Notes: generated from the letters alone by a model not told the origin. A DNA stretch of 64,000 nt from an uncultured Gammaproteobacteria bacterium (GCA_964605545.1 CAZSCX010000001.1:16148-80147); one strand, 5' to 3'. Counted from the first letter of the stretch, positions 9,342 through 32,781 are shown. Made by a program: numbers and translations.

Positions 9342-10607
9342 TTATTGTATGGTTAATTCCAGGAGATGGGCGGAGTTGGGAGACATATAAATAGTGGTTT
9401 GATTGTTGTTTAAAATTTCTGAAGTAGTATTGCCCAAGAATTGCGTTTTATTTAATTTGTATTGACCTGATGGCAAGTCTTTTAGTGTAATAGGAACGGT
9501 TTCTTCGTGTTTATTGTCGGGATCATAGTTTACTAGAAGAATTTGAATAGTTTGGTTGTCTTTGGTGGCTAAAGCGGAAACATGTGAACCATTACCTTCT
9601 TGACCAATGAGTTCTCCTTTAAGTTTATTTAAAAATTCAAAAGCATAATAACGAGGTTTTATGGTTCCGTCCTTTTTTATTAAGCCCCAGTGAGTGTTTG
9701 GTCCATCGATTATTTCAAAAGTAAAAACTTTATGAATATAAGGAGAGAGACGGCTAGCGGATGAGAGAAGGTGAATGGCAGAAAAAATATTATTATAAAA
9801 ATCATCATTTTCCGAAGTTGGTCCAAATTCTGAAATGATCTTTTCTATATCACGATATGAGGGGTAAGAGGCGAGGAGAGAATTGAGATTTTCGATATCA
9901 GAAAGGTATTCCGTGGGATATTTTGAGTATTTATGCCATGATATAAAGTCTAGTTTGATATGGTTATTATTGCAGTATTCGAGTAAGTATTTTATCCAAT
10001 TAGGATAGTAGCCTGAAGTGCTGGGGCCACCAATTTTATAGGGAGTATTTTGAGCTCCGGCAGAGATGGCAACAGCGGTTTTGGCATAAAAGTCCAGGTA
10101 ATTATTTTCTCCTTTATAGTGCATTTTATTATAGAGATCGGGTTCGTTTAGAACTTCATAATAAATATTGTCAATGTTTTTTTCCACAGAGTAGCGATAA
10201 ACCAGAGCAGTGACGGCTTCCTGCCAATTTGAAACATCGTCAGGATTAGTGAGACTAAAGAAAGGTTTAGCACCGGTAGCAAGAATAGTATCGACAGTAT
10301 CGTCTAACTCTTTTTGGGTATAATAATTAAATACATGGTCTATTCTGATATATTGAGGCGAGAGCTTTTGGAGATGGGAAAGAGCTGGTTTGATCATGTT
10401 GGTATGTGATTCTTCTCCACCTTGAGAAAAATTACTCCAAAAATTTTTGGGAATATTGCCGACCGAGTTTTGAGTGTGAATAATGATGTTGGCTAAAGTA
10501 GGAGTGGCATCTTTACGTATATCTTGTTGTTGCTTAATTAATAGTATAAAGACAGGGAGAAGAAGAAAAAAAATGAGAGTGATAATAATTTGTTTCTTTT
10601 TTGACAA
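9342..10607 (-). CDS. glycoside hydrolase, clan GH-A (GH5/GH39-like), membrane-anchored; TTG start
   Basis: YEVLNEPD (acid/base NEP) and ISEFGPT (nucleophile EFG). The N-terminal TM helix followed by QQDIRKDA resembles the leader motif of the adjacent cluster. Confidence 0.6.
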   Translation of the reverse strand: MSKKKQIIITLIFFLLLPVFILLIKQQQDIRKDATPTLANIIIHTQNSVGNIPKNFWSNFSQGGEESHTNMIKPALSHLQKLSPQYIRIDHVFNYYTQKELDDTVDTILATGAKPFFSLTNPDDVSNWQEAVTALVYRYSVEKNIDNIYYEVLNEPDLYNKMHYKGENNYLDFYAKTAVAISAGAQNTPYKIGGPSTSGYYPNWIKYLLEYCNNNHIKLDFISWHKYSKYPTEYLSDIENLNSLLASYPSYRDIEKIISEFGPTSENDDFYNNIFSAIHLLSSASRLSPYIHKVFTFEIIDGPNTHWGLIKKDGTIKPRYYAFEFLNKLKGELIGQEGNGSHVSALATKDNQTIQILLVNYDPDNKHEETVPITLKDLPSGQYKLNKTQFLGNTTSEILNNNQTTIYMSPNSAHLLELTIQ

Positions 10608-10632: not shown

Positions 10633-13314
10633 ATGAAAAAGTGTGCCGGATTAGCGCAAATTCCTTTGATGTTGGGATTGTTGCTAATGGCAGTGGCGAT
10701 ACCGGTAGTATCTCAATTGACAAAAAATAGTCAAGAAACAAGAAATCGAGCCCAGAGTATGCCGATAACTTATTACCGATTGATAGGTGATCAGTGTGTT
10801 GTGGCTGGAATTTTTTTAACGATTGACGAATGCCAGCAGGTAGTTAACGGGACTTGTTATGAGAATAGTAATTGTGAGAGCGGTGGAGAGGATGAGCCAA
10901 CGGCGACTCCTGATCCGATATCTAGATATTATATATGCGATTCGAAACCAGGAATGAAAAGACTTTGTAGTATTTCTTATTCTAGTGAGTCTGCTTGCCA
11001 GGCAGCTATTATAGATTCAAACACTCAAAAATGTGTTAATGATTGTAATAAAGAATGTTTAAATACATATTCTGTATGTATTGATCCGGCAATATTGGAA
11101 AAATGTCCAAATGGATCTCGAACAATGGGTTGTGAGCAATTGCTATATTCGAATGAAGTGCCAATGGGAGAGATTGCCGGAATAAATTATTTCTATGCCG
11201 ATCCGCCCAATAATTTTTTGGCTCGTTGTTTTTCTTTTGATTATGATTTTGAAGCGTCACAGGGTCGCGGAGGGGTTTTTGGAGAACTTGAGTGTTATGA
11301 GAGGTTCGGGAAACAAAATTGTTTTATCAGTAATGGTGATTGTTCAAATGTTTGTCCAAAACCAAGTACTAATACAATTACGCCAGCGCCGCCATTTGAG
11401 GCGTATAGATGTATGGAAAGTACCTGCCAGAGACAGATTTATGCAAGTATTGACGAGTGTTTGAAGGAAAATGGATTTGCCGGTTGTTTTAATGGTTGTA
11501 GTGATCAATTTTGTAGTGTCGAACAGGAATTAACCGAATATTATTATTGTGATTATAATAGTGAAAATGTAATTGAGGGAAGTTCTTTTGTTACGGGTGA
11601 GTGTGGCCATAATAGTTTTAAAAATATTTATGAATGCTATTCTCAGCATGAGAAATGTACTTTATTGAATTGTGATGATAATCCTTTGGGAATGAATGAT
11701 AATTGTCAGAAAAGTGTGATTGAGGAGGATAAAAAATTAAAATTATATTTTTGTAGTCCAAGCGGATGTCGGTGGGAAATGTTTAAAAACTGGGTAGAGT
11801 GCGGTAAATTACATGGTGTTTGTTATGATGCTTTGAATCAATGTAAATTGTATCAAAGATGTGCGGTGGCACCGCCAACTGATGATATCTATTATTTGGA
11901 TATGTCGTACACAAAATATAGTGAACAGTGTCGAAAAAGTAGTTATAAATATCTTGAAGATTGCGAACTCTATGTAAATGGTTGCGAAGAAGGAACAACA
12001 CTTGATTATTGCAAAAGACAGCTGGGAGAAAATTTTGAAAATGCAAGATGTTTTATGAATGATTCTTTGTGTGGCAGGCCAGCGCAAGAACCTTTAACAA
12101 TAGAAGTGACACCAAAATTTTCCAGTAATCCGGTGAGAGCGAAAGAAGAATTTTCTTTGGAAATTTTTGCCGATGTAATCAATGACGGTCAAACAATGCC
12201 CGATTTTTCTATTAAAGTGTGTATGACTGATAATTTAACTCGGGTATTAGACAAAGACAATACAAGTGATTGTAGTTTTACAGTAGAAGATGTCGAGGAT
12301 GAAACCCAAAAATGTTATCAGATTAGTGGTAGTTGTGTTGCAAAAAGTGAGAAGACAGTGTTGGCTAGATTATGGTTTGTGTCTGAAGCGGCCAATACAA
12401 CTGTGACTTTTTCGGTTGATTGGCCTGGATATTTTGCCGATGAATTGATTTTAAATATTGGGAATGAAGCACGAAGTTGTGATACCGGAGAGAATGGAGA
12501 TGCCAATAAAAATGGGGAGATTACAATGGATGATCATGGTATTTGGGAAAATGAATATTTTATAGGAACTTCGATGACATCTGATTTTAACTGTGATTCT
12601 AAGATTGATCTTTTGGATTTTGAAATTTGGCGATCAGGATATTTCAATCGAAATATTTCGATAACACCTTCGCCAAAACCGGTTGAATGTACAAATGGTG
12701 AATGGAAATGTTTGGATGCGACTAGAGCCCAACAATGTGTTGAGGGTTTTTGGAAAAATACAATTTGTGGTAGTGGATATAAATGTGATACTGGTGTTTG
12801 TAAAGAAGTCCAGTGTATTTTTGAAAATGAAAAATATTCAATTGGAACGAGTATTTGTACCGATACTTATTTGCCATCTGTATGTAGATCAAATGGTTTG
12901 TTTGAGGAAGGAGAATGGTGTAATAGAGGTGATTGGTGCAAGGATGGGATATGTAAAGAAATTACTTGTACCAAGGGAGATCAGGAATATAAAGTAGGTG
13001 AATCTTATTGTGGTGTTCAATCAATATTTAAATGTGGTGGTAGTGGAAGTTTTTATTCTTATGCATGTAATGGAACTTTGGTACCAGGAGAAAGATCTTG
13101 TCAGTGTGTACCTTTTGAAAATAGTCCAACGCCGACACCACCGGTAGGCACGCCGGTAACCAAATGTTATCGGAGAGATAATTATGCAGAGATGAATGTA
13201 GGGGATACTTATTGTCAGGACGATATATTTTATTTGTGTCAGAGTAACGGTATTTTGTATGAACATCAATGTATTAATGGTTGTTTAGGAGATGAATGTG
13301 CTAGTGAAATATAA
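10633..13314 (+). CDS. very Cys-rich secreted/surface protein (893 aa) with pilin-like leader and internal dockerin-like Ca-loops
   Basis: MKKCAG-LAQIPLMLGLLLMAVAIP leader and SQETRNRA motif. Carries an internal dockerin-like pair (NGDANKNGEITMDD ... DFNCDSKIDLLDFEIWR) and C-terminal C..G.W..C repeats. Confidence 0.5.
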   Translation: MKKCAGLAQIPLMLGLLLMAVAIPVVSQLTKNSQETRNRAQSMPITYYRLIGDQCVVAGIFLTIDECQQVVNGTCYENSNCESGGEDEPTATPDPISRYYICDSKPGMKRLCSISYSSESACQAAIIDSNTQKCVNDCNKECLNTYSVCIDPAILEKCPNGSRTMGCEQLLYSNEVPMGEIAGINYFYADPPNNFLARCFSFDYDFEASQGRGGVFGELECYERFGKQNCFISNGDCSNVCPKPSTNTITPAPPFEAYRCMESTCQRQIYASIDECLKENGFAGCFNGCSDQFCSVEQELTEYYYCDYNSENVIEGSSFVTGECGHNSFKNIYECYSQHEKCTLLNCDDNPLGMNDNCQKSVIEEDKKLKLYFCSPSGCRWEMFKNWVECGKLHGVCYDALNQCKLYQRCAVAPPTDDIYYLDMSYTKYSEQCRKSSYKYLEDCELYVNGCEEGTTLDYCKRQLGENFENARCFMNDSLCGRPAQEPLTIEVTPKFSSNPVRAKEEFSLEIFADVINDGQTMPDFSIKVCMTDNLTRVLDKDNTSDCSFTVEDVEDETQKCYQISGSCVAKSEKTVLARLWFVSEAANTTVTFSVDWPGYFADELILNIGNEARSCDTGENGDANKNGEITMDDHGIWENEYFIGTSMTSDFNCDSKIDLLDFEIWRSGYFNRNISITPSPKPVECTNGEWKCLDATRAQQCVEGFWKNTICGSGYKCDTGVCKEVQCIFENEKYSIGTSICTDTYLPSVCRSNGLFEEGEWCNRGDWCKDGICKEITCTKGDQEYKVGESYCGVQSIFKCGGSGSFYSYACNGTLVPGERSCQCVPFENSPTPTPPVGTPVTKCYRRDNYAEMNVGDTYCQDDIFYLCQSNGILYEHQCINGCLGDECASEI

Positions 13315-14437: not shown

Positions 14438-14477
14438 TGCTACTTGATATTATGCTAATATTAATTGATAATTATTT

Positions 14478-16304
14478 ATGATGTTTGATAAAAAGAATTT
14501 GGCTAATGTGGTAACAGCAGTGTTTTTGTTTACAGCGTTGATGGTGACTGGTTTGGCAGTAAAGAGAACTTTGGATATGAGAAATAGGGCAGCGACGACA
14601 GGGACAAAATTTTATATTGATCCGGCTAGTGTGGAATTAAAAGTGGGAGAGACAAAAGAATTTGCTGTTTATGTCGATACTTCTGATACCGGAGAAAAAG
14701 TAGCTTTTGTGGAAGGGCAGTTGTGTTATGGTCCAAAAATTAAAATTGCCAGTCAGTCGGCTGATGTTTATAAACCACAGGAAGAATATTTTAATGATGT
14801 TGACCTAATTAAGGGCAAGAGAGCGGAAGATATCGTCGATGGTACAACGGCTGGAGTGAAGTGTTTAAATTTTGCCTTAAGTTCGGCTAGTGTTACATCA
14901 GATAATTTAAAAAGCGGAGTAGTAAAAACTTTAATCGTTAGATTTACTGGGGTGGAAACAGGTAGCGAAAAAGTTAGTTTTACCCAAGATCCATTAAAGA
15001 CTTATTATAATAATAATTTAAGTGATGAGCCTGGAATTATTGCTGCTTATACCGATTCAGAAATTACGGTGGTGACACCAAGCGAGGGAAGTGAATCATT
15101 GATTACTCTTGATGGTTCAAAATTGGCAACTAAAGTTGGTGAAACCGGAGAAGTAATAGTAAAACTTGATACTTCGTCATCATCTAGAGAAGTCGATGGA
15201 TTTCAGGCGACTGTTTGTTATGGAAAGGAATATAAAATTGGAAATACCTTGGCAGATGTAACAGTGGCCAATAGTACCAGCAAGGGTTTATCGAGCATTT
15301 TCAGACCAATTACAGTTATTCCGAAGACTGATGGTAGTGGGACATGTGCAACAATAGCAATGAGAGCTTCGGCTGAAGATGGAGTTGAATTGCCTTCTGG
15401 TTCTTTTGATGTTTTGAGAATAAAACTGGAAGCTGTTATAGCTGGCAAAGGGACGGTTTATTTAGATAAAGAGCAATGTGAAGTGAGTGGACCAAGTGTG
15501 CCCGGCAAGGGAAATGCGATTACTCACGATATTGGATCGGCTGTAGCTTATGAAGTGCTTTCTGATGGAGGAAAATTTTGGCAATGTAATGAAACAACAA
15601 GAATTTGTGAGGAAATAAGTGAAACTACATGTAATTTGATTGATAACTGTATCCGTAGTGGAGATTGTCCTGTAGGTTATACTTGTCCGAGTACAACCGA
15701 TACACCGAAACCAACACCAACAGATACACCGGAGGAAACTGGTTTGATATTTAATTTTAAAATGACTTTTCAAGGTTTAATGTCAAATGCCTCGGAATGT
15801 GGTGAGAAATGGAATAATTTAAAAATTAAATTAGTTGACAGTAAAGGTAAAGAAAGTCCTTTGATGGATGTAGCTATTTCACCGGAAGATGCTTTGTCTA
15901 TGGCTGTAGAACCGATGGTTTTTAAAGGAAAAGTATATTTGGGTGAATATGTGCCGGAAGGAGATGTTTTTGCTTTGATGCGGGGGCCAATTCATATTAC
16001 CGATAAATATGGTATGGATGCACAAAACGGTGAATACAATATTTATTTGGGTAAACTTAATGGAATGACGGAAAATTTGGAAACGACAAAATTATTTGAT
16101 TTTACAAAATATGCTTTGAGAGGCGGTGATGTCGATGCCAATGATATGCTCAATGGGGCAGATTATACAAAGATTAAAGATAGTTTAAGTTGTACGGAAA
16201 GTACTTGTTTAAATTCTGATATTAATGGTGATTGTGTAGTTAATGCAGCCGATACTACATTTTTTATAGATAATATTAAAATACGCAATGGCAAATTATA
16301 CTAA
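14478..16304 (+). CDS. surface protein: N-anchor, two cohesin-like domains, eight-Cys module, C-terminal dockerin
   Basis: Leader ...VKRTLDMRNRAATTG and cohesin-like strands (KTLIVRFTGVETGSEKVSF). C-terminal dockerin pair GDVDANDMLNGADYTKIK / DINGDCVVNAADTTFFI. Confidence 0.5.
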   Translation: MMFDKKNLANVVTAVFLFTALMVTGLAVKRTLDMRNRAATTGTKFYIDPASVELKVGETKEFAVYVDTSDTGEKVAFVEGQLCYGPKIKIASQSADVYKPQEEYFNDVDLIKGKRAEDIVDGTTAGVKCLNFALSSASVTSDNLKSGVVKTLIVRFTGVETGSEKVSFTQDPLKTYYNNNLSDEPGIIAAYTDSEITVVTPSEGSESLITLDGSKLATKVGETGEVIVKLDTSSSSREVDGFQATVCYGKEYKIGNTLADVTVANSTSKGLSSIFRPITVIPKTDGSGTCATIAMRASAEDGVELPSGSFDVLRIKLEAVIAGKGTVYLDKEQCEVSGPSVPGKGNAITHDIGSAVAYEVLSDGGKFWQCNETTRICEEISETTCNLIDNCIRSGDCPVGYTCPSTTDTPKPTPTDTPEETGLIFNFKMTFQGLMSNASECGEKWNNLKIKLVDSKGKESPLMDVAISPEDALSMAVEPMVFKGKVYLGEYVPEGDVFALMRGPIHITDKYGMDAQNGEYNIYLGKLNGMTENLETTKLFDFTKYALRGGDVDANDMLNGADYTKIKDSLSCTESTCLNSDINGDCVVNAADTTFFIDNIKIRNGKLY

Positions 16305-16737
16305 GGCTTTTACTTTGGTGGAGTTGTTGGTAGCGATGACAATTATTATGGTACTGACAATTGTGGCGGTGGTAAATTATGGTAGTGTCCAAAAAAATGC
16401 CAGAGATTCAAAAAGAAAGGCTGATTTAGAAAAAGTGAGGGTGGCGTTGGAAATGTATAAACAGGATCATGATGGATGTTATCCGCCAAATACCAATACT
16501 TTGGATGACGAGGGTTATTTAGATATTGTGCCAAGAACTGATCCGAAAGGACAGCCGTATTGTTATATATTTGCTGGATCTGCTTGTGGGTCACCAGCAG
16601 TAGGAAATACGTCTTATTCTTTGTATACAAGTATGGAAAATGAGAAAAATGAATCTTCATCTTTTGATGCTTTTACTTGTATTGGAGATGGTGGTCTTAC
16701 ATTGGAAAATACAAATTATGGAGTTAGTAATCCTTAA
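16288..16737 (+). CDS. type IV pilin / T2SS pseudopilin (PulG/GspG-like)
   Basis: Class III signal: basic leader then A/G-FTLVELLVAMTIIMVL. Followed by a GspG-like SVQKNARDSKRKADLEKVRVALEMY. Confidence 0.75.
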   Translation: MANYTKAFTLVELLVAMTIIMVLTIVAVVNYGSVQKNARDSKRKADLEKVRVALEMYKQDHDGCYPPNTNTLDDEGYLDIVPRTDPKGQPYCYIFAGSACGSPAVGNTSYSLYTSMENEKNESSSFDAFTCIGDGGLTLENTNYGVSNP

Positions 16738-16740
16738 AAT

Positions 16741-17352
16741 ATGAAAAAAAATAAAGGCTTGGCTCAAATTCCATTGATAATTGGTTTGATGGTAGTGGCG
16801 GTGGCTATTCCAATGATCAAAAATATATCAATGAAAAAAGAAAAGACTAAAAATATTGTTTCTGAGGAAAAGGTCGTCGAAAAAAAGATGAAAAAAGTTG
16901 AGGCAAAAATGTTTTTGGAACCAAAGGATATAAATTTAAAAGTTGGAGAAAAAAAGAAAATTAAGATAATAGTTGATACAAGTGAGGGAAAAAGGAAGGT
17001 TGATATTGCCAGGGCAGTGTTGTGTTGGAGTGGGGGATTGGCAATAGGTGATATTGAGAAAGATATTGTTTTAGATAAATCTTTTTTTGATGGTTTTGTT
17101 TTTAAAAATCCTGTTAAGGTGGAAGGGTTCGATTGTATTGATATAGTTGCTAATTCACAAAAGAGAACTAATGAATTGAATTCCGGTAAAATGACTTTGG
17201 CTGAAGTTGTATTTGTGGCTACAGAAAAAATGGAAGGAGGGGTGTTTACTTTTGATTCTGTTTTAAGTGAAGTTTCTGGTCCTGCTAATGAAAATGGCGA
17301 TTATGGGATTCAATTAGGGGAATTTGAAAAATTTATTTATCAGGTTAAATAG
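16741..17352 (+). CDS. pilin-like-leader protein with single cohesin-like domain
   Basis: MKKNKG-LAQIPLIIGLMVVAVAIP leader and a cohesin-like body (MTLAEVVFVATEKMEGGVFTFD). Confidence 0.45.
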   Translation: MKKNKGLAQIPLIIGLMVVAVAIPMIKNISMKKEKTKNIVSEEKVVEKKMKKVEAKMFLEPKDINLKVGEKKKIKIIVDTSEGKRKVDIARAVLCWSGGLAIGDIEKDIVLDKSFFDGFVFKNPVKVEGFDCIDIVANSQKRTNELNSGKMTLAEVVFVATEKMEGGVFTFDSVLSEVSGPANENGDYGIQLGEFEKFIYQVK

Positions 17353-17355
17353 GCC

Positions 17356-19848
17356 GTGAAGAAGTGTCTATTTCTTTTTTTGTTTTTAGGTTTATTTTTG
17401 GCACCGTCAGTATTGGCGGAAGAGAATTACGATGGTTATTTAATTAAGTATAAGAGTGGAAAAATTGAGAAAAGTGCTACTAAACCGATGAATATAATGA
17501 GCGAGGGAGAGGAAAGTGATATTAAGTTTATTCAACCGAATTATATTTATGAAACGTGTGAAATTAGCGAGAACGATAAATATTGGTATTTAAAAAATAC
17601 CGGCCAAATATTTCAAGAAAAAAGTGGGGTTGGTATAAAAGGGAGGTCAGGGGTGGATTTAGGAAAAGAGGCAGCCGATGAACTAACAAGAAATGAGAGT
17701 AAACAAGACATAATTGTGGCCGTCTTGGATTTGGGGTTGGATTACAATGACACGATATTTACTGGGAAATTATGGAATGGAGAGAATTGTAAAAATGAGT
17801 TGGGGGAAACGATGGGAGGATGTAAAAATGGTTATGATTTTGTAAATAACGATAAAGATCCTTTGCCAAATAGTAGTGAAGATCATGGTACTCATGTGGC
17901 GGGGATAGTGGCATCAATTGCACCGAATGCGAAATTAATGATATTGAGAGTAGGGGCTGGGGGAACGATGCCGGCAGAAGCTATAAGCCGGGCAATTGAT
18001 TTTGCCAAAGTCAATGGGGCGAAGGTTATTAATGCTAGTTTTGCCTCTTCAAAAGGATCTGATGGAAAATATCCAGATATTTTTGATTTATTGATGTACG
18101 ATTCAATTAAAAATTTTGATGGACTTTTCATCAATGCGGCAGGAAATGAAAATACCAATATCGATACAGGAGTGACCGGCGGGAGACCGTTTCCGGCATC
18201 GTTAAAATATGGAATGGGAGGTTTTAACGAGCCATTGAAAAATATTTTTGTAGTTTCGGCAACGAATTATTATGATGATATTACTTATTTTTCCAATTTT
18301 GGTAAAGATACAGTAGATATCGCAGCAATGGGAGCAGGTATTTATGGAGTGAGTAATAACGGTGGTAGGGTTTATTATCAGGGGACTTCGATGGCGACAC
18401 CGATGGTTTCCGGAGTGGCGGCTTATTTGTTAGGCTTGAGACCAAGTATGAGTGTGGCCGAATTAATTTCTTTGATTTCCGGAAGCGGAATTAAGGCTGA
18501 GGGAGTGAAGGGGATGGTGTTAAGTGGAAGGAGATTAAATTTGGAAACGGCAGTGAGAAAAATGAAAAATATGGAATGGGATAGGGAAAGCAAGGGAAGT
18601 GAAGGGGTAAAAAGATTGAGTGACGGAAAAATAGGAGGAGGAATTTTTATGGAAATAAACAGTAAATATTTACCGGAATTTTTGTATCTCTATTTATCAG
18701 ATATGTCCAATTCGTTGCGATTGACAAGATGCAGTGAAATGAAATGCGAGAGTGTTAGTGAGACAAAGGAATTGTTAAAAGGAGGATTAAATCCAATTGC
18801 GTTTTCTTTGACAGCTGATGATCGGCCAATAATTTTGTCAGGGGGAACTTTTAGTTTATTAAAAATTTGTAAAGATAAAGATTGTATTGAATACAAAGAT
18901 GTGGGAAGTGGTAATTATGGAGTTAATGTATCAATTAATGGAGAAATAGATGTCGATAGCAAGGGTAGAATAGTCTGGACTTTTTATACGGCGGATAGAA
19001 ACTGGGTGATTTTGAATAGATGTGATGATGCGCAATGCACTAGTTACCAATCTTGGAAGACGGCTTCAATGATATCAAATGATTCAGAAGCGGCGTTGGA
19101 TTTAAAAATAGATAAAAGTGATCGAATATTTTTGGCATACAACGAACAAATTTCGGTTAAAAAATTAATTAAGTGTGATGATAATTTAAGCGATAGTTGT
19201 GATTTGTTGGGCACAGATAATCAATCAATTTATGGCTATGGAAATGCTTTGGCGATAGATAAAGATGACAATCTTTATTGGCTTTTACCGGCTAGTGGTG
19301 GTCTTAAGTTAAGTAGGTGTTTAAATGGTGATTGCCAGATAATAAATTCATTGATATCGGTGTCGGTTGATAGTGGGTCTTTGTTTATGAGTAAATTAAA
19401 AATGGTAATGAATGTTGGCGGAGTACCAATGATAACGATAGGTGATGATGGTGATAAATATGGAGTAAAAATAATTAAATGTAAAGACAAAAATTGTAGT
19501 CAGAGTGAGACGGTGATAATTGACAATCAATATGGTGTAGGGGAAAGTATGAGAATAAAAAGTGGGGCGGGAGGAATGGGTGGAGTGGCTTATTTGGATA
19601 CATTGTCGGCTGATTTGAAATATCATAGTTTTCTGAATTATTTTCCAGTGAAGTGTAGTGAGAATTATTTTGGTAAAAATCAAGGTGATTATAATTGCGA
19701 TAATTTAATTACTGGGGGAGATTATATTGTTTGGAGGAGAGAATTTTTGGATAAAAAAATTGGAGAAAAATTTGAGTCAGATGGAGATGGAGATGGTAGA
19801 TCTAGTCTGAGTGATTATTCGTTATGGAGAGAAGAGTATTTGAAATAA
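17356..19848 (+). CDS. subtilisin-like serine peptidase (S8) with C-x4-C repeat region and C-terminal dockerin-like domain; GTG start
   Basis: Catalytic triad contexts VAVLDLGLD, HGTHVAGIVAS and GTSMATPMVSG. Six [KR]C..x..C[ST/Q] repeats. C-terminus GDYNCDNLITGGDYIVWRREFLDK...DGDGDGRSSLSDYSLWREEYLK. Confidence 0.8.
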   Translation: MKKCLFLFLFLGLFLAPSVLAEENYDGYLIKYKSGKIEKSATKPMNIMSEGEESDIKFIQPNYIYETCEISENDKYWYLKNTGQIFQEKSGVGIKGRSGVDLGKEAADELTRNESKQDIIVAVLDLGLDYNDTIFTGKLWNGENCKNELGETMGGCKNGYDFVNNDKDPLPNSSEDHGTHVAGIVASIAPNAKLMILRVGAGGTMPAEAISRAIDFAKVNGAKVINASFASSKGSDGKYPDIFDLLMYDSIKNFDGLFINAAGNENTNIDTGVTGGRPFPASLKYGMGGFNEPLKNIFVVSATNYYDDITYFSNFGKDTVDIAAMGAGIYGVSNNGGRVYYQGTSMATPMVSGVAAYLLGLRPSMSVAELISLISGSGIKAEGVKGMVLSGRRLNLETAVRKMKNMEWDRESKGSEGVKRLSDGKIGGGIFMEINSKYLPEFLYLYLSDMSNSLRLTRCSEMKCESVSETKELLKGGLNPIAFSLTADDRPIILSGGTFSLLKICKDKDCIEYKDVGSGNYGVNVSINGEIDVDSKGRIVWTFYTADRNWVILNRCDDAQCTSYQSWKTASMISNDSEAALDLKIDKSDRIFLAYNEQISVKKLIKCDDNLSDSCDLLGTDNQSIYGYGNALAIDKDDNLYWLLPASGGLKLSRCLNGDCQIINSLISVSVDSGSLFMSKLKMVMNVGGVPMITIGDDGDKYGVKIIKCKDKNCSQSETVIIDNQYGVGESMRIKSGAGGMGGVAYLDTLSADLKYHSFLNYFPVKCSENYFGKNQGDYNCDNLITGGDYIVWRREFLDKKIGEKFESDGDGDGRSSLSDYSLWREEYLK

Positions 19849-19868
19849 TGTTAATATTTATTATATAA

Positions 19869-21605
19869 ATGAGGAATAATTTGAAAAGAATTTTGTTTAG
19901 TATGATTTTGATGATCGGATTGGTAGTGACAGGAGTGTTGGTACAAAGTACACAGGAGACGAGGCGTAGAGCGGCAGAAGGAGAAGTTTCATGTGGGGAA
20001 CAAGATGGAGTAGTTAGAATGGCGGGTGAGACTTGGTGTCAAGAGGGATCTCCTCAGATGGTTAAAAAATGTTTGAATGATAGTACTGTTTCTGTAAGTG
20101 AATTTGAATGTGGTCCTGGTGATGAATGTGTTAATGGAAAATGTGAATTTATTAAGGAAGGCTGTACGACTCCTGAATATGGTGGAAAGTTTTTTTCTCC
20201 TGGTCAAATAGTATGTGTAAGTGAAACAAGCTACAGGGAATGTCAGGCTAATAATCAATATAGTGAGATTAAATCCTGTGGAGAGAATCAGATATGTGAT
20301 TTTGGTATGTCTGGTTATCATTGTGTAAATAAAGATACGACTTGTATAGATTATGAAATGTCGAATCAATATAATACGGTTTATTATGCACCGGGTGAGG
20401 TATTGTGTAAAAGTGATAATAGTTATGTAAGATGTTTAGACGATAGTACTTTTTCTGCGGAATTAAAATGTGATGAAGGGTCACTTTGTTATCGAGGTAA
20501 GGGGTGTGTCAGAAATGGTGGATGTATAAGGGAAGGAAGATTGCCAGCTTTTGATGGAGATACATATTGTGATGATAATGATTTGAGTATTATAAAAACT
20601 TGCCTAGATAGTAATTGGTTAATTGATAAATGTTCCGAGGGAGAGGGTTGTGATAATCGAGATAATAATGAAAATCCGACGGCATTTAAGTGTGTAAAAA
20701 AAGTTGATAAATGTACTTGGAATGAGGCGGATTATAGTGTTGGAGAGAGAAGATGTGGAGAGGACAATCCTAAAGAAATATTTACTTGTACTGATTTTGG
20801 TTGGGATTTTGGAATGATTTATGATGGTAGTAATGTAACTTGCGAAACAAAAAAAGAATCATTTACTAATGGCAAGTGTAAATTATGTAAAAAGCCGTAT
20901 GTTTGTGATACAAGTGCTAAGAATGTTGGGGCGAGATTTTTAATAGATTTGGTGAGTGACGAGAATACTAATTTGGATGTGGGGACGACGATAGTTTTTG
21001 AGATTGGAGTGGACAGTACAGGACGGTCGATTACGGGAATTGATGCAGATCTGGATTTTGATGCAAGTATTCTTAAAATATTGAAAGTAGATAATTTAAT
21101 TAATTTATTAACAATGAAGGCGCCTTACGATAGTGGTGTTCTTTCTTTTTATAATGGTAACCCTGAAACTATTTATTCAAGAGTTTTTAAGAATGAAAAG
21201 ATTGCTAGAATTACTTTTGAAGTTTTGAAGAAAGTAAATAATTGGTCGATTAAATTTAAGTGTGTTAATAGTAGTATGACAGATTCGAATCTTTTGAATG
21301 CTGAAAATGGGGTGGTGACTGATTTAATTTCTTGTGGTGATAATGAGTGGTTTTATGTTGATGAAACGGGAAATAAACTGAACCAGAATCCTTTTGGATG
21401 TGATGAAAGTGCATTGAGACAAAATGATCCTAAATTTAGGGGAGATTATAATTGTGATGGGGATTTGACCGGGGGGGACTATATTGTTTGGAGGGGTGAG
21501 TTTATTGATAAAAAGTATGAGTTTGGAGTACAGTCTGATGGAAATTGTGACGGGAAAAGTAGTTTGATCGATTACTCGAGATGGAGAGAAGAGTATTTGA
21601 AATAG
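19869..21605 (+). CDS. Cys-rich surface protein with cohesin-like domain and C-terminal dockerin-like domain
   Basis: Leader ...VQSTQETRRRAAEGE. The cohesin-like segment (KIARITFEVLKK...SMTDSNLLNAENGVVTDLISCGDN) is near-identical in motif to 32782's. C-terminus GDYNCDGDLTGGDYIVWRGEFIDK...DGNCDGKSSLIDYSRWREEYLK. Confidence 0.5.
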   Translation: MRNNLKRILFSMILMIGLVVTGVLVQSTQETRRRAAEGEVSCGEQDGVVRMAGETWCQEGSPQMVKKCLNDSTVSVSEFECGPGDECVNGKCEFIKEGCTTPEYGGKFFSPGQIVCVSETSYRECQANNQYSEIKSCGENQICDFGMSGYHCVNKDTTCIDYEMSNQYNTVYYAPGEVLCKSDNSYVRCLDDSTFSAELKCDEGSLCYRGKGCVRNGGCIREGRLPAFDGDTYCDDNDLSIIKTCLDSNWLIDKCSEGEGCDNRDNNENPTAFKCVKKVDKCTWNEADYSVGERRCGEDNPKEIFTCTDFGWDFGMIYDGSNVTCETKKESFTNGKCKLCKKPYVCDTSAKNVGARFLIDLVSDENTNLDVGTTIVFEIGVDSTGRSITGIDADLDFDASILKILKVDNLINLLTMKAPYDSGVLSFYNGNPETIYSRVFKNEKIARITFEVLKKVNNWSIKFKCVNSSMTDSNLLNAENGVVTDLISCGDNEWFYVDETGNKLNQNPFGCDESALRQNDPKFRGDYNCDGDLTGGDYIVWRGEFIDKKYEFGVQSDGNCDGKSSLIDYSRWREEYLK

Positions 21606-21632
21606 ATGTTGAATATGTAATAATGAATTAGG

Positions 21633-23198
21633 ATGAAGAAAAAATTGTATGTTATTTTTGGATTGTTTGTTTTGACTTTGGCTTTGGGGGTGACGGTAAA
21701 ATTGAGTGAAAAACCACAGGAGATAAGGAGAAAGGCGGCGGAGAATAATCTTGAAACATCAACGGCCGTGGAAGTGCGTTGTGATACTTTTACCCCTTTT
21801 ACATTATCTAGTGTACCTGATGAACAAACATATCCTTTTAGTTTGACAGTAGGGGATATAAATGCAGATGGATTAAAAGATGTTTGTGTTGGTTTTTCTC
21901 ATAACACTTCTCATGAGGTAGTTCCTGGTTATCAGTGTATAAAAAATATTGATAACAAGGAGTATTTAGTTGGATCTTTATTGACGTTTAAGAGAACATC
22001 CTCCTATGCAGCAATATCGGTTGGCTTCGTCGGTGGTACTGATTTTGTATATACACCAGGAACTACATTGGCGTCGTTATATATTATGAATAATACATTG
22101 AAAACGGGGAATCAATTGCTGTCTAATATTGTTAGTTTTTATGAGCCTAACGTAACCAAATTGGGACCGAATATTTTAACTACCGATTTAAACAATGATG
22201 GATATCAAGAGATTGTTTCTTCTGATCAAGATTATGCAATTCAAGTTTTTTTTAATAAAAAAGATGGTACTTTTAATACTTATGTTGATTATAGTGTGCC
22301 ATACGGTTATCATTTTACAGCAGTGGCAGATTTAAAAGGAGATGGGAGTAAAGATGATTTAATTGTTTCATCTTTTCAAAAAAGACAAATAAGTGTGTTG
22401 TTGAATAATGGTGCAGGTTTACTTGGTGCGGCAGTGGGATATACCGTGCCTTCTGATGTTCAGTATGTATCTCCATATGGAATAACGGCGGCTGATTATA
22501 ATGGTGATGGTTTGGATGAAGTGGCTGTTGTTTCTGGTGCATATGGTATAGATACGGTATTGAGTATTTTTGATAATTTGGGTAAGGGGAAATTGAGCCT
22601 TTCAAAAACTATTCGTGGTGACAAATTGGATGATTCTCGATCAACTTGGGTGACTTCTTTGGATCTTAATGGAGATAATTATATTGATATTGCAGCTACT
22701 ATGGGTAAAGACAAAATAACTTTCCTTTATAATGACGGGAAAGGGAATTTTAGTGAGGAAAATATGGATATTTATGATTCCGGTTATGGCTATCCGGCTG
22801 ATTTGAGGGCTGAGGATATTAATGGAGATGGTCAAAAAGATCTTTTATATGTACTTCGTAATTCAGATAAGTTAATGGTTTATTTGACATGTAAAAAAGA
22901 AAGTACTCCAACTCCTACGATTATGCCGGCGGAGGGCTTGTGCAAAAGTGTGGTTCTGGATTCATTGCATCCAGAATGTTTGGTAAGTTGCAAGAAAACA
23001 GATGCAAATTATGTTGGTATGGATAAATGGGGGGCAGATTATAACTGTGATGGGGATGTGACTGGTGGAGATTTTATAGTTTGGAGAAGAGAATTTTTGG
23101 ATAAAATTGTGGGTGATTCTTTGCAATCTGATGGCAATTGTGACAATAAAGTAAGTTTGGCCGATTATTCTAAATGGAGAGAGGAGTATTTAAAATAA
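21633..23198 (+). CDS. FG-GAP repeat beta-propeller protein with C-terminal dockerin-like domain
   Basis: Leader ...KLSEKPQEIRRKAAEN. Six D-x-N-x-D-G repeats (DINADGLKD, DLNNDGYQE, DLKGDGSKD, DYNGDGLDE, DLNGDNYID, DINGDGQKD). C-terminus ADYNCDGDVTGGDFIVWRREFLDK...DGNCDNKVSLADYSKWREEYLK. Confidence 0.65.
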   Translation: MKKKLYVIFGLFVLTLALGVTVKLSEKPQEIRRKAAENNLETSTAVEVRCDTFTPFTLSSVPDEQTYPFSLTVGDINADGLKDVCVGFSHNTSHEVVPGYQCIKNIDNKEYLVGSLLTFKRTSSYAAISVGFVGGTDFVYTPGTTLASLYIMNNTLKTGNQLLSNIVSFYEPNVTKLGPNILTTDLNNDGYQEIVSSDQDYAIQVFFNKKDGTFNTYVDYSVPYGYHFTAVADLKGDGSKDDLIVSSFQKRQISVLLNNGAGLLGAAVGYTVPSDVQYVSPYGITAADYNGDGLDEVAVVSGAYGIDTVLSIFDNLGKGKLSLSKTIRGDKLDDSRSTWVTSLDLNGDNYIDIAATMGKDKITFLYNDGKGNFSEENMDIYDSGYGYPADLRAEDINGDGQKDLLYVLRNSDKLMVYLTCKKESTPTPTIMPAEGLCKSVVLDSLHPECLVSCKKTDANYVGMDKWGADYNCDGDVTGGDFIVWRREFLDKIVGDSLQSDGNCDNKVSLADYSKWREEYLK

Positions 23199-23241
23199 TG
23201 AGAAACTTTACATTAATAAATTTATTATGTAATAATTATTT

Positions 23242-24006
23242 ATGAAAAAAAGGATTAGTGGTGCAGTACAAATACCTATTTTGGTTGGTTTATTAATAGT
23301 AGCGGCGGCTTTACCGATAGTTTCAAAATTGACACAAAAAAGTCAGGATGTGCGTAATTTGGCGGCCGAGGGAGAGGTAACGGCAACTCCGACATGTAAT
23401 CCAAATGCTTGTAGTCAGACTACCGGATGTACGATGAATAGATGTTCTCCTGGTGATGCTATCCAAACAAATTGTACTTTGTGTGCTCCAATTCCAACGG
23501 CTGATCCGAATTATACGGCGGGATGTAATAATAATTGTTCTAACTGTGCGGCAACGGATACACCAATTCCGACAAACACTCCGACTAATACACCGATTCC
23601 AACTAATACTCTAGTACCGACAATGGCTTGTACTATTAGTCAAAAATTAATTGATGATGGAGTGACAATTAAGGCATACAAGGTTAATGCCGATAAATCA
23701 GTTGGAAATGAAGTTACATTTAATGTTTCTACTGGTCAATTGGGTATTGATGATAGTTTTAATAGTAATATGGTTCTTTTTGAAGTGACGATTAGTAAAA
23801 AAAGTGGAGTAAAAAATGTAGGATTGCTTTTTAAAAGTAAAGATGGAACCATTAATGCTTCAGCTTGGACTAGCGGAAGTGTGTCTGGAACTGGTTTAAG
23901 TTTTTATAGTAGTCCGACTACAAGTGGGGATTTGGTAGCCAAGTTTCCGTTACAGTTAAGTTTTACCAAAAGTGTTCAAGTTGATATTTCAGTCCAATAT
24001 TATTAA
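23242..24006 (+). CDS. pilin-like-leader Cys-rich protein with Thr/Pro linker
   Basis: MKKRISG-AVQIPILVGLLIVAAALP leader and SQDVRNLAAEGE. A TDTPIPTNTPTNTPIPTNT linker precedes a C-terminal beta domain. There is no dockerin. Confidence 0.4.
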   Translation: MKKRISGAVQIPILVGLLIVAAALPIVSKLTQKSQDVRNLAAEGEVTATPTCNPNACSQTTGCTMNRCSPGDAIQTNCTLCAPIPTADPNYTAGCNNNCSNCAATDTPIPTNTPTNTPIPTNTLVPTMACTISQKLIDDGVTIKAYKVNADKSVGNEVTFNVSTGQLGIDDSFNSNMVLFEVTISKKSGVKNVGLLFKSKDGTINASAWTSGSVSGTGLSFYSSPTTSGDLVAKFPLQLSFTKSVQVDISVQYY

Positions 24007-24015
24007 TAGTATAAA

Positions 24016-25311
24016 ATGAAAAAAAATAGTGTCTGGGCAATTTTAGCATTGGCGGTGGTGGCGGTGGCTTTGCCAATGGCAGTGGAATTGACGGGGAGGT
24101 CAGCGGAATTAAGAAGGAAAGCAGTTGATTTTATGGAAAATTGTAGTTGTACTAATGCGACTTCGGCAGAATGTACAAGTTTGAAGGCTAATGGGATTGC
24201 TTACAAACCGTGTAATGCTTGTAACGAATTTTGTGGAGATCCTATCGCATGTAATGAGGGGGATCCGGTGGATTGGAGATTGCCGGCTTTTAAATGTAAT
24301 ACTCCGGGACATGAAGTACAAGTTTCTTGGGCTTGGTATTGTGATGATCCTGATTATTGGGACACTGAATGTCCCCTGGATACGGTTGATGTTGATAAAT
24401 GCCAATGTTGTAAGTTAGATGTTTATGTTGCGGGTAAAACTTTTCATTGTACAACGTCAGTGTGGGTTCCGGGGGCTACTTTAACACCAACAGAGGTGCC
24501 TACTCAGGTACCAACGGAAATACCAACATCGATACCGACTAATACAATAGCGCCGACAGCAACTAATACGCCAACAGAAACTTTGACTCCGACAATAACG
24601 CCGATACCGCCGGTGTGTGAATGTACTACTAGTGATTATTGTTATGATGCTATTGCTGATTTTGGTGGAAAACAGTGGAATCCGTGTGTGGCATGTGAAT
24701 CGATGTGTGTGGCCAAAGATAAGGGAGAGAATTTGGCTCCGGAATCATTGGCTAAAAAATATGATTGTCCTAGCTTGGGGATACAGTTGAATTTAGGTGA
24801 ATATTGTCAAAATCCGATAAATTTTGAACATTGTGGTTTAGATATTGATCCGTGTCTGTGTTGCAATTTAACTGGTATTACCGGTTATTTTGGGAATGTA
24901 GGGGAGTGTACTTCGGCAATATGTAAATATATTCCAACACCGACTTTTACACCAACGCCGTTTCCATATTGTACGCCGGTGCCGTGTCCGATAGGAGGTA
25001 AATTTTCTTGTCCTGTTGATAAAGCTCCTTGTCTTGGGGGTTGTGGAATGGAGTGTTTGACCCCGACACCAACCGAAACACCTGCGGAATGTCCGGTGAG
25101 ATGTGAAATGGAAGATGAAAATTATGAGGGAATGGATAAATGGGGTGGAGATTATAATTGCGATGGAAGTTTGACCGGTGGAGATTTTATGATTTGGCGA
25201 ATAGAATTTTTGGATAAAATTGTGGGTGATTTCTTAAAATCAGATGGAAATTGTGATGGTAAGGTAAGTTTAGCTGATTATTCAAAATGGAGAGAAGAGT
25301 ATCTAAAATGA
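24016..25311 (+). CDS. Cys-rich surface protein with TP-rich linkers and C-terminal dockerin-like domain
   Basis: Leader ...VELTGRSAELRRKAVD. C-terminus GDYNCDGSLTGGDFMIWRIEFLDK...DGNCDGKVSLADYSKWREEYLK. Confidence 0.45.
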   Translation: MKKNSVWAILALAVVAVALPMAVELTGRSAELRRKAVDFMENCSCTNATSAECTSLKANGIAYKPCNACNEFCGDPIACNEGDPVDWRLPAFKCNTPGHEVQVSWAWYCDDPDYWDTECPLDTVDVDKCQCCKLDVYVAGKTFHCTTSVWVPGATLTPTEVPTQVPTEIPTSIPTNTIAPTATNTPTETLTPTITPIPPVCECTTSDYCYDAIADFGGKQWNPCVACESMCVAKDKGENLAPESLAKKYDCPSLGIQLNLGEYCQNPINFEHCGLDIDPCLCCNLTGITGYFGNVGECTSAICKYIPTPTFTPTPFPYCTPVPCPIGGKFSCPVDKAPCLGGCGMECLTPTPTETPAECPVRCEMEDENYEGMDKWGGDYNCDGSLTGGDFMIWRIEFLDKIVGDFLKSDGNCDGKVSLADYSKWREEYLK

Positions 25312-30825: not shown

Positions 30826-32160
30826 ATGACAAATAATAAAAATAAACTTTTTGTTTTATTAATAATATTGGCAGTATCTATTTTTGGGTCGGTAATGCTG
30901 ACAAGACAAACACAAGAGCTAAGAAGGAAGGCAGCTGATGGTTATATTCAATCTTTTGAACCAGTTTCAATAACTGGTATGAAAGTGGGAGGGACAGCGT
31001 CGGTAACTGTTTTAGCAGAAACACCTTTAGGTTTTAAATCGGCGACTATTCTGATTTGTTACCCTGATTATTTGAAGGAACTAACAAAGGATGATATTAA
31101 ATTATCGGATTATTTTACAATTGATTTACCGCCGATTCGAAGAGTTGATTTGGGTTATAGTGGAAAAATTTGTTCGGTAATAGAGGCGATGGTGAGTATA
31201 GATGATGCAACTAAAACTGGAGCGCCAGCAGGAATATCTCAGGTGGCGAAGCTTACTTTTACCGGAAATAAGGTTGGAACTGGTGGTAAGATAGAAGCAA
31301 TTATTGGTCCTGTTTCCGGTAGAGAATATGGTAAAACGACCGATAAGAATTTTAGATCATTGGTTTCCGGTGATTTTACAGACGGACAAGATAAAGTCTT
31401 TAGCACTGTTGGGTCTGTTGATATTAGTGTTGAAGGTGATAAGAAATATGTTAGAGGAGATTGTGATTTTAGTACTGGTAAATATGAATGTACAGAGAGT
31501 GCTAATGGGACTATGGATTTGGCTACTTGTGAGACAGATACAAATTGTTATGTTAAAGGTGATGATTATGTTTTGAAGTTTAGAGTTATTTTTCCAGGTG
31601 TTTGGCCGCAAAATAAATTTATTGATGGTTATGAAAAAGTTAGTTTATTGGTTGAATCAGCAGTTGGTACGACTTGGTTGGGAGATGTAACAATGACAAA
31701 GGTGGCAAAAGAAGAGACAACCGATATAAAAGACGGTGATATTCAATATCAGGTGTATCAGGCGTCGGTGCCATTGAAAGGTTTTAATTACAACAAGGAT
31801 TTAGCGGTAACTATAAAAGGAGTAAAGCATTTAGGAATGAGGTTTGGCGAAGATAATCAAAAAGGTTGCTATAGATCGATGATAGGAAAAATTGGTTCGA
31901 CTAATGCTTTAACAAAAGATGAGACTACAACACCTTTGTTTAACTTCATTAAAACTCCATTACCGGGCGGTGATGTTGATAATAATGATATTGTGAATGC
32001 GGCCGATTATTCTCAGGTTAAGTCAAAAATGTTGACTTGTGATAATGCCAAGTGTGGGGAGGATATTAATGGTGATGGAATTATAAATAGTACTGATGCC
32101 AGTTATATTAATTTAACAGTCTCTGACAAATGTGGAGACTGGTGGACTACAGGAGAATAA
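30826..32160 (+). CDS. surface protein with cohesin-like domain and C-terminal dockerin (DVDNND type)
   Basis: Leader ...LTRQTQELRRKAADG and cohesin-like AKLTFTGNKVGTGGKIEAII. C-terminus GGDVDNNDIVNAADYSQVKSK / DINGDGIINSTDASYIN. Confidence 0.5.
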   Translation: MTNNKNKLFVLLIILAVSIFGSVMLTRQTQELRRKAADGYIQSFEPVSITGMKVGGTASVTVLAETPLGFKSATILICYPDYLKELTKDDIKLSDYFTIDLPPIRRVDLGYSGKICSVIEAMVSIDDATKTGAPAGISQVAKLTFTGNKVGTGGKIEAIIGPVSGREYGKTTDKNFRSLVSGDFTDGQDKVFSTVGSVDISVEGDKKYVRGDCDFSTGKYECTESANGTMDLATCETDTNCYVKGDDYVLKFRVIFPGVWPQNKFIDGYEKVSLLVESAVGTTWLGDVTMTKVAKEETTDIKDGDIQYQVYQASVPLKGFNYNKDLAVTIKGVKHLGMRFGEDNQKGCYRSMIGKIGSTNALTKDETTTPLFNFIKTPLPGGDVDNNDIVNAADYSQVKSKMLTCDNAKCGEDINGDGIINSTDASYINLTVSDKCGDWWTTGE

Positions 32161-32776
32161 TATGAAAAATATTAGTAAAAATACTTTTTACTGGATAATA
32201 CCAGTTTTTTGTCTTGTTATAATTTTTCAAGCGGTGGTTTTAGTAAATAGTACTTTAAACCAAAAAACTACGATGACGGCCAGTAAATCGGCAGATGTCA
32301 ACGATAAAGAGAGTCAGGTGAAATTAGTGCCGGAAGTTGATTTGGGTTTGGTGGCCATGGAAACTGAATGGAAAATAGGTAAGAAATATAAGGTAACTTT
32401 TGAGGCAACTTCGAAACAGACCAGATTAATAGATGCAATGGATTTATATGTCAAATATGATAAAGATGCTTTTACGGTAAGTAATTTACTTTCCGGAGAT
32501 GGTTTACCAAAACCAACTTCCAGCAAAATTAGCACCAAAACCGGTTTGTTGGTAGCTAATATTTATATTCCGGTGAACGAGAATTATAAAATGGAAAAGG
32601 CGGTAAAAAAGACACTTTTGACTTTTGAAGTTACACCAAAGAAGTTAGGGGATTTTACTTTTGAAATTGATACTGGAAAAGTAGTAAAAGAATCTGTTAC
32701 TATGATAGTAGAATCAAAAACTGCTAAGGTTTTACCTTTTGCAGCAGAGATGTTAGCGGTTAAAGTAATTAAATAG
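32132..32776 (+). CDS. membrane-anchored cohesin-like domain protein
   Basis: Single TM helix (FYWIIPVFCLVIIFQAVVLV) followed by a beta-sandwich-like body (KKTLLTFEVTPKKLGDFTFEID). Confidence 0.4.
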   Translation: METGGLQENNMKNISKNTFYWIIPVFCLVIIFQAVVLVNSTLNQKTTMTASKSADVNDKESQVKLVPEVDLGLVAMETEWKIGKKYKVTFEATSKQTRLIDAMDLYVKYDKDAFTVSNLLSGDGLPKPTSSKISTKTGLLVANIYIPVNENYKMEKAVKKTLLTFEVTPKKLGDFTFEIDTGKVVKESVTMIVESKTAKVLPFAAEMLAVKVIK

Positions 32777-32781
32777 AATTA

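Follow-up and report, generated by a model that had tools for sequence, protein, structure and literature searches.

A two-part N-terminal module on surface proteins of Candidatus Shapirobacteria, encoded beside a type IV pilin gene

In a stretch of 64,000 nucleotides from a record titled as an uncultured Gammaproteobacteria bacterium (GCA_964605545.1 CAZSCX010000001.1:16148-80147; the window, meaning here the whole stretch of DNA that was analysed), a type IV pilin gene (16288-16737) stands directly ahead of a gene whose product begins with a pilin-like leader (16741-17352). Leaders of the same kind are encoded by three further genes of the surrounding cluster, starting at 10633, 23242 and 28342 (genes are named here by their first coordinate). 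A preliminary description of the sequence had raised, as speculation, the idea that these may be prepilin signals, by which cohesin-like or Cys-rich modules would be displayed as minor pilins on a type IV filament. The question raised by this locus is whether the four leaders are prepilin signals at all. In our judgement there is an even chance that they belong instead to a two-part N-terminal module specific to one lineage, a signal-anchor or sorting module that would be retained in the membrane and engage a partner.

The four leaders and the 36-residue module

The pattern G[LA][AVI]Q[IL]P[IL] occurred exactly four times in the six-frame translation of the window, at nucleotides 10648, 16756, 23260 and 28366, against a chance expectation of 0.006, and each occurrence was located 5-8 residues past the start codon of one of the long open reading frames (ORFs) 10633, 16741, 23242 and 28342. 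The presence of four basic leaders continuing with G and then xxQ[IL]P was thus confirmed. The longer pattern given for them in the preliminary description was also real, except that the spacing from G[LI][LM] to A[IL]P is four residues and not five. The DNA of the four copies differed freely at synonymous sites, indicating that conservation acts on the protein. The same differences ruled out recent duplication, gene conversion or a recent DNA repeat as the source of the likeness.

The motif described beforehand proved to cover no more than the first half of a longer module, the 36 positions of which align without gaps. The consensus is a basic leader followed by G-LAQIPLMIGLLLMAVAIPVATKLVQxNQDTRNRAA. 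The module consists of a basic leader of 3-8 residues, G0-x-x-Q3-x-P5, an 18-residue helix with conserved G9, M13, A16 and P18, and an outer stretch, L23-x-Q25-x-x-Q28-[DE]29-x-R31-x-x-A34-A35. Past A35 follows a hypervariable Cys-rich body, often ending in a dockerin-like tail. The information content was 1.8-3.7 bits in the module and fell below 0.9 bits past position 35. The juxtamembrane residues Q25, Q28, R31 and A34 (for example nucleotides 10702-10755 of the window) are spaced exactly three apart and do not form one face of an alpha-helix.

Both halves of the module were found at the starts of three of the four genes, all on the plus strand. The module at 10633..10755 (70.7 bits with the module hidden Markov model (HMM)) opens gene 10633-13314, encoding 893 amino acids, 8.2% of them Cys, with a dockerin-like segment in the interior of the protein. 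That at 23242..23367 (59.6 bits) opens gene 23242-24006, encoding a 254-residue protein in which a Cys/Pro/Thr-rich linker and a C-terminal beta-sandwich follow, and in the alignment of its orthologues the module was far more conserved than the body. That at 28342..28473 (61.0 bits) opens gene 28342-30822, encoding 826 amino acids with 10.5% Cys and a dockerin-like tail ending ...DYSLWRENYLK. The fourth gene (16741..17352, plus strand, 203 amino acids, 42.4 bits) carries the first half only. Its N-terminus reads MKKNKG/LAQIPLIIGLMVVAVAIP (nucleotides 16741-16812; slashes mark boundaries of leaders or signal peptides throughout), and is followed by a Lys/Glu-rich linker and a cohesin domain at residues 55-203.

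A profile built from the four N-termini was searched against 1.84 billion protein cluster representatives, and matched at least 224 of them at E<=1e-3, 57 of which reached E<=1e-10. The module match began no more than about 55 residues from the annotated start in 150 of the 150 matches listed. Conservation among 148 members reached 96% at G0 (G 142, A 5, S 1), 93% at Q3 (137/148), 91% at P5 (135/148), 97% at A16, 99% at P18, 93% at R31 and 98% at A34, percentages that are somewhat inflated, as the profile that picked out the matches was itself made from the motif. The gap-free spacing and the abrupt end of conservation are not imposed by a four-sequence profile. Position +5 was never Glu, +3 was E in 3/148, and +2 was A, V or I. 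The earlier observation that Q at +3 and P at +5 stand in place of the canonical E5 was accordingly borne out across the family.

The proteins of the family range in length from 67 to 5018 amino acids, contain 8.4% Cys on average, and are otherwise unrelated in their bodies. Among the 150 proteins listed, one hydrophobic segment was seen in 146 and two in 4, and a C-terminal transmembrane segment or LPXTG motif in none. Pfam detected little beyond a few dockerin, FG-GAP and VWA matches in 92 family members, while the consensus of the family alignment ends in a dockerin-like GDxxCDGxVxxxDxxxW. The module itself was matched by no Pfam or NCBIfam model in the window proteins and by no Pfam model in the 92 members. 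The database names of 10 family members were 'hypothetical protein' or none. Literal strings of the module motif occurred in no paper of the searchable literature, where nothing relevant to Shapirobacteria with cohesins or dockerins was found either, and the N-terminal alignment, put to a word-indexed protein search, matched only a fragment of the same gene. The module is thus uncurated and apparently an undescribed N-terminal sorting or anchor signal.

The outer half was also found by itself. The motif Q[DE]xR[RN][RK]A[A] followed a hydrophobic segment in ten cluster proteins of the window, including three of the four with the leaders first described. In 630 proteins of the window and the related loci (176,653 amino acids), Q[DE].R..A occurred 50 times, and 50 of the 50 occurrences were within the first 100 residues, directly past a hydrophobic stretch. 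Many of them follow non-conserved transmembrane helices without G-x-x-Q-x-P. In most species the product of the operon's second gene has such an ordinary helix with the outer half, and in the window this holds for six more cluster proteins, among them those of genes 9342 (minus strand), 13292, 19869, 21633 and 30826. Conversely, the 16741 family has kept the first half, and the second half is replaced by the Lys/Glu-rich linker with no Q[DE]xRxxA. The two halves of the module are separable. As ordinary AxA signal peptides occur in the same cluster (17356, 25287, 26811 and 32782), the module represents a distinct class of N-terminus, and the organism uses at least three kinds.

The bodies behind the module were examined by structure prediction with AlphaFold2 (AF2). 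The model of 16741 had a predicted local distance difference test (pLDDT) score of >90 for residues 55-203 and of ~30 for residues 1-49, an unpacked N-terminus. The top 40 matches of this body in a Foldseek search of the PDB were all cohesins (E 3.7e-7; template modelling score up to 0.77), so that in 16741 the cohesin-like module of which the preliminary description had spoken is a cohesin fold. Pfam Cohesin alone did not detect it. Seven homologues of 16741 were found, with 54-98% identity. The low-confidence model of 23242 (pLDDT 45.6), which gives weak support only, showed one helix at residues 13-42 that runs to A35 of the module, about 95 disordered residues, and beta strands at 141-253.

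The lineage, the operon and the pilin gene

A survey of species-representative genomes returned 36 related loci; the queries were 10 near-consensus modules, and the survey was for this reason biased toward consensus-like copies. The loci were titled Candidatus Shapirobacteria, Microgenomates or Patescibacteria, and the remainder were evidently mislabelled bins with the same gene order. L012, L013, L015, L017, L022, L023, L025 and others were titled 'uncultured Gammaproteobacteria bacterium', and one was titled 'Candidatus Methanoperedens sp.'. Because gene order and 60-80% identity in rpsB, tsf, frr and rseP place these records in the same lineage of the candidate phyla radiation (CPR), the off-lineage titles are mislabels or placeholders. 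The recovered genomes were almost all Shapirobacteria, and on the favoured reading the module is specific to this lineage (Microgenomates, CPR).

The conserved order begins with rpsB-tsf-frr-rseP and a GH39 gene on the minus strand, followed by the module gene and by genes for a 30826-like dockerin protein, a 32132-like membrane cohesin-like protein, a 32782-like protein with signal peptide, cohesin and LPXTG, and a 33471-like FN3/dockerin protein, and continues to gatB/yqeY, dnaX and recR. Gene 10633 is the syntenic first gene of this operon. A module gene was present at the equivalent position in about 21-25 loci, and orthologues of the core 30826-34142 in about 16-21 loci. Usually only the first ~40-50 residues of the orthologous module genes were alignable. 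In comparison with L013, L018, L020, L025 and others, the window contains an extra ~17.5 kb (13292-30822) within what is an operon of five genes in most other Shapirobacteria. The extra segment includes the pilin, an S8 protease, an FG-GAP protein and two further full-module genes. Surface-protein genes have thus multiplied in one clade, always at the same place in the chromosome.

The pilin gene of the expansion (16288..16737, plus strand) encodes 149 amino acids, MANYTKA/FTLVELLVAMTIIMVLT...ARDSKRKADLEKVRVALEMY, in which the start of the mature part can also be given as MANYTKA/FTLVELLVAMTIIMVLTIVAVV. The leader MANYTKA is short and basic and ends in Ala at -1; the mature N-terminus FTLVELL has a hydrophobic residue at +1 and Glu at +5, with about 20 hydrophobic residues. 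The Pfam model PF07963 N_methyl matched with 28.8 bits against a curated cut-off of 21.2, and matches to T2SSG, GspG, ComGC and ComGE (Pfam/NCBIfam) were all sub-threshold. The alpha-1 helix, residues 5-74, aligned with solved geopilin, GspG, PilE1 and PilA chains (phmmer against the PDB, E 1e-6 to 2e-3). On the strength of the N_methyl score and this alignment, 16288-16737 is, as far as its sequence tells, a genuine type IV pilin and in itself ordinary. The preliminary description had correctly called it a PulG/GspG-type (pseudo)pilin and had missed the Ala at -1, which is residue 7 (TKA/FTLVELL; codon at nucleotides 16306-16308). The -1 residue is A in the orthologues of L048 and L051 and G in that of L052, and a second Shapirobacteria pilin (L021, 2272-2727) likewise has Ala there (QRA/FTLIELL). 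We therefore read the Ala, which is frequent at -1 of Shapirobacteria pilins, as a habit of the lineage rather than a defect.

The start of 16288 overlaps the preceding gene by 17 nucleotides, and its end lies 3 nucleotides ahead of the start codon of 16741, suggesting co-transcription. The order of pilin, 16741-like gene and S8 protease was conserved in L048, L051 and L052, down to 55% identity, with the genes overlapping or abutting. The adjacency of pilin and 16741 is known from close relatives of the window only. A metagenome scan for 16741-type genes gave one additional syntenic locus, L054, which is more distant and higher in GC and has the same operon order. The only tie of pilin 16288 to the module is gene order.

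Explanations of the module

For the reading given even chances above, a signal-anchor or sorting module, we infer the following course. The module would insert through the signal recognition particle (SRP)/Sec route, its N-terminus facing the cytoplasm and the body of the protein lying outside the cell, with G0-x-x-Q3-x-P5 at the cytoplasmic face, and would then stay as a membrane anchor. The conserved surface of the helix and the outer stretch may bind a conserved partner, candidates for which are another module protein, a 32132-like or 33471-like membrane protein, or some other sorting factor. Proteins bearing cohesins and dockerins could thereby be placed in one surface assembly with the sortase-anchored cohesin 32782, and the pilin 16288 would have been co-opted into the clade-specific expansion of the operon.

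Several points weigh against this reading. The partner and any sorting enzyme are so far hypothetical, and the present results would suit a segment that is cut off as well as a retained one. A plain Sec anchor has no need of the near-invariant small residue at the boundary of leader and helix, which is characteristic of sites cleaved at the cytoplasmic face. Many of the proteins with the module end in a dockerin, whereas classical dockerin proteins leave the membrane instead of being anchored in it. The basic residues K22, R31 and R/K33, immediately outside the helix, are not usual in an anchor with N-terminus in and C-terminus out. The AF2 confidence at the module N-termini was low (pLDDT 30-40), and the inflation of the family percentages mentioned above counts here as well.

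A release of the ectodomain appears doubtful to us. The module would in that case be a cleavable sorting signal, cut by an outside protease in or just past R31-x-x-A34-A35. The freed Cys-rich dockerin ectodomain would dock on wall-anchored cohesins, and the leftover helix stub, with its helix-breaking P5, G9 and P18, would be cleared by the site-2 protease RseP. This is consistent with the sharp stop of conservation at A34/A35, where indels begin directly past AAE in orthologues, with the near-invariance of R31 and A34 among basic residues, and with the C-terminal dockerin-like tails of many members, which fit release. Proteases are also encoded nearby: in most of the syntenic loci rseP (M50 and PDZ domains) precedes the module gene at a distance of one or two genes, and secreted proteases are encoded at 17356 (S8) and at 41-43 kb (S41 and HtrA). 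However, the frr-rseP linkage is an old, ancestral housekeeping synteny, so the adjacency of rseP may mean nothing, and the operon shows no conserved protease dedicated to the task, the S8 protease being limited to the expanded clade. Between the helix and the candidate site there are 13-14 residues, and the site does not follow the -3/-1 rule of signal peptidase I (R/K/S at -3). In 16741 the outer half is missing completely, and one would expect the cohesin of this protein to remain anchored.

The prepilin reading itself, with which the question began, has become unlikely. It treats the module as a class III signal devoid of E5, in which PilD, the prepilin peptidase, would cut at G0. The cut proteins would then join a type IV filament made of pilins such as 16288, or its tip, and display cohesin or Cys-rich modules there; in a variant, they would remain as processed pilin-like membrane anchors, comparable to the archaeal bindosome. 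The layout of a class III signal was indeed found, as the preliminary description had noticed. All four leaders, in 10633, 16741, 23242 and 28342, have G at -1 after a short basic leader and ahead of a hydrophobic stretch. In the family, the few exceptions to G at position 0 are A or S, matching the G/A choice at -1 of the pilins of this lineage, and the leaders are as short and basic as the local prepilin leaders. About 21 hydrophobic residues contain one polar residue near the start (Q3, or E in the three members mentioned), and, as in pilins, the helix is best conserved and the head hypervariable. The order of pilin, 16741-like gene and S8 protease, kept in overlapping or abutting genes, points the same way. 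E5 is missing from minor pilins of the tip, such as GspK and ComGG, and as PilD needs little beyond G/A at -1, its action on the module is compatible with the sequence. None of pilB, pilC, pilD, pilM, pilN, pilO and pilT was found among the genes of the 64-kb window, which counts against the reading; PilD and pilus machinery are reported to be widespread in CPR bacteria (PMC6744442), and for this reason a lack of pilD in the genome, on which the preliminary description had let its idea depend, probably will not apply.

The likeness ended with the layout. Neither Glu at +5 nor T/S at +2 was found in the four leaders or the family, in which P prevails at +5. The four window proteins had no N_methyl or other class III HMM match in Pfam/NCBIfam at E<=0.01, nor did the 92 family members at E<=0.001 in Pfam. 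Homology of the module to pilin alpha-1 was rejected, with a probability of 7.4% in hhalign against pilin N-termini. A pilin-type head, with alpha-1C packed on a beta-sheet, was absent from 16741, where a cohesin beta-sandwich stands behind a linker, and, at low confidence, from 23242, and bodies of up to 5018 amino acids are unlikely as filament subunits. The outer half also occurs, as described above, on ordinary helices that lack G-x-x-Q-x-P. In only 2/36 loci was a pilin encoded within 10 kb, in each case as an orphan between LytR_C-domain and queA genes amid housekeeping genes, with no pilus machinery genes nearby. These results told against display as minor pilins. Likewise, it is hardly to be expected that G/x-x-Q-x-P is cut by an aspartic protease of the prepilin peptidase type, in which case the module would be a new E5-less class III signal that anchors cohesin, dockerin and Cys-rich proteins or loads them on a type IV filament or pilin-like membrane scaffold, and the pilin beside 16741 would be what is left of that link.

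It is very unlikely that the module is a Sec signal peptide of the ordinary sort, with signal peptidase I cleaving behind V19-A20-T21 and the conserved mature start KLVQxNQDTRNRAA acting as a tag: V19-A20-T21/K22 fits ~85% of full modules (position 19 V/A/I/L; position 21 T/S/A in 126/148) and places the 99% conserved P18 at -4, a typical place for helix breakers, but Thr is poor at -1, where L or V stands in 9% of members, most proteins with the outer half only have no small-x-small site between helix and motif (e.g. GGIVLVNKNQD), the true AxA signal peptides of the cluster look quite different, and a conserved hydrophobic core is unexpected in a discarded signal peptide.

Neighbouring genes and known systems

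The window has ~35% G+C, a strong positive GC skew and a CPR-type gene content, and 9342-34142 is a run of exported-protein genes, tightly packed and nearly all on the plus strand. Rfam and tRNA scans detected nothing in the cluster. The GH39 glycoside hydrolase (9342..10607, minus strand; Pfam GH39, 89.5 bits) has an ordinary N-terminal transmembrane helix followed by QDIRKDA. The genes described next, up to 33471, are on the plus strand. Genes 13292-14437 and 14478-16304 encode ordinary transmembrane helices followed by QDLRRGA and LDMRNRA, respectively, and dockerin-like C-termini (Dockerin_1 sub-threshold in the former); their bodies are cohesin-like by eye, with no cohesin match for either. 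The S8 subtilase (17356..19848; Pfam Peptidase_S8, 121 bits) has an AxA signal peptide, SVLA/EE. In the region 19869..25311, which also houses 23242, a transmembrane helix is followed by QETRRRA in gene 19869 (19869-21605; Cys-rich, with a cohesin), by QEIRRKA in gene 21633 (21633-23198; FG-GAP) and by AELRRKA in gene 24016 (24016-25311; 8.8% Cys). The core 30826..34142 comprises gene 30826, with a transmembrane helix, QELRRKA and a dockerin (Dockerin_1, 27.3 bits); gene 32132, with a transmembrane helix and a weak cohesin match; gene 32782, with a signal peptide, a cohesin (39.9 bits) and LPXTG (Gram_pos_anchor, 29.6 bits); and gene 33471, with a transmembrane helix, an FN3-like domain and two dockerin-like repeats.

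Five proteins of the window (13292, 19869, 21633, 24016 and 28342) end in ...DYSxWRE[EWN]YLK. The tail, ...SDGNCDGKVSL[AI]DYS[KLR]WRE[EW]YLK before the stop codon, is near-identical among them, looser in 28342, and was also seen on the S8 protease orthologues in L048. It has the look of half a dockerin that serves as a tag at the C-terminus. With the tail on five cluster proteins, both ends are conserved and the middle is variable. The adjacent genes 25287-26783 and 26811-28298 are paralogues encoding 498 and 495 amino acids with ~4.7% Cys, a signal peptide ...VILA/ETCSPT... and no Pfam match.

Outside the cluster, a gene at 2712-4865 (minus strand) encodes a 717-residue coupling-protein ATPase of the TrwB/VirD4 type (TrwB_AAD_bind, TraG-D_C), found with 72-74% identity at the same position in L018 and L025; apart from it, no further type IV secretion genes were visible in the window. 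The ORF-poor gap between this gene and rpsB contains small tandem ORFs (5418-5636, 5575-5829 and 6066-6260; 72, 84 and 64 amino acids) with paired CxxC motifs like those of zinc ribbons. The GC skew, +0.3 to +0.49, falls to about +0.05 past 56 kb (56000-64000), where the genes turn to the minus strand (gyrA, gyrB), and a gene for a XerC/D-type recombinase is located at 57420-58349.

Bacteria of the CPR live attached to other cells, and most proteins of their surface lack an annotation. The 36-residue signature offers a sequence handle for several hundred otherwise unrecognisable, Cys-rich and fast-evolving surface proteins of one candidate phylum, and ties them to a conserved cohesin-dockerin operon. 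For annotation, the gain is that the reading of module proteins as minor pilins, attractive but unsupported, is corrected. The Pam pili of CPR bacteria, which have signal peptides predicted by SignalP (Sec), Ig-fold pilins, chaperones and an operon by the ATP synthase genes (bioRxiv 10.64898/2026.03.03.709456), were considered as context and set aside, as none of their features match here.

Compared with class III signals (PF07963 N_methyl, TIGR02532), the module is alike in its short basic leader, in the near-invariant G/A before ~21 hydrophobic residues with one early polar residue, in its basic amphipathic continuation, and in the conservation of the N-terminal helix ahead of a variable remainder. 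It differs in having Q3/P5 and not E5, and A/V/I and not T/S at +2, in the lack of an HMM match, of a pilin head and of a linkage to pilus genes conserved across the 36 loci, and in the obligatory outer Q[DE]xRxxA, which is absent from pilins. Modular pilins such as PilB and PilC consist of a complete pilin domain with a module grafted on. In Streptococcus sanguinis, a bacterium with a single membrane, PilB and PilC are modular type IV pilins that retain a canonical class III signal and have an adhesin/lectin module behind a pilin-type helix (PMC8179133, PMC9934059). A functional module behind an N-terminal helix is common to both systems, but neither a canonical class III signal nor a pilin domain is found here.

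In archaea, the sugar-binding proteins of the Sulfolobus bindosome have class III signals on non-pilins, which are cut by PibD at a KG/L boundary without an E5 requirement. The module resembles them in this boundary, in doing without E5 and in its large non-pilin cargo, which would stay attached to the membrane surface; it differs from that archaeal system and its peptidase in that no Pfam class III match was found in the members tested, and the bindosome is not known to have a comparable conserved outer motif. YSIRK-G/S, KxYKxGKxW and SipW-cognate signals are conserved N-termini on Gram-positive surface proteins, from which signal peptidases remove them at a site near the helix. As with the module, a conserved N-terminus is shared there by unrelated surface proteins of one lineage and probably directs a particular route of secretion or localisation, but the module differs in sequence, in its two halves, which extend over the entire helix and 14 residues outside it, and in having no NCBIfam match.

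The cluster resembles cellulosome-type cohesin-dockerin systems with anchoring scaffoldins in the cohesins of 16741, 32782 and 19869, one of them with LPXTG, and in the dockerin-like ends. In contrast to cellulosomes, the cargo, besides a GH39 hydrolase, an S8 protease and an FG-GAP protein, consists mostly of Cys-rich proteins of unknown function and not of glycoside hydrolases; the genome of the host, a member of the CPR, is reduced; and anchoring would be through a new N-terminal module. If a dedicated enzyme or partner does recognise this module, it would constitute a new N-terminal sorting route in single-membrane bacteria, with a role comparable to that of LPXTG and sortase or of prepilin and PilD.

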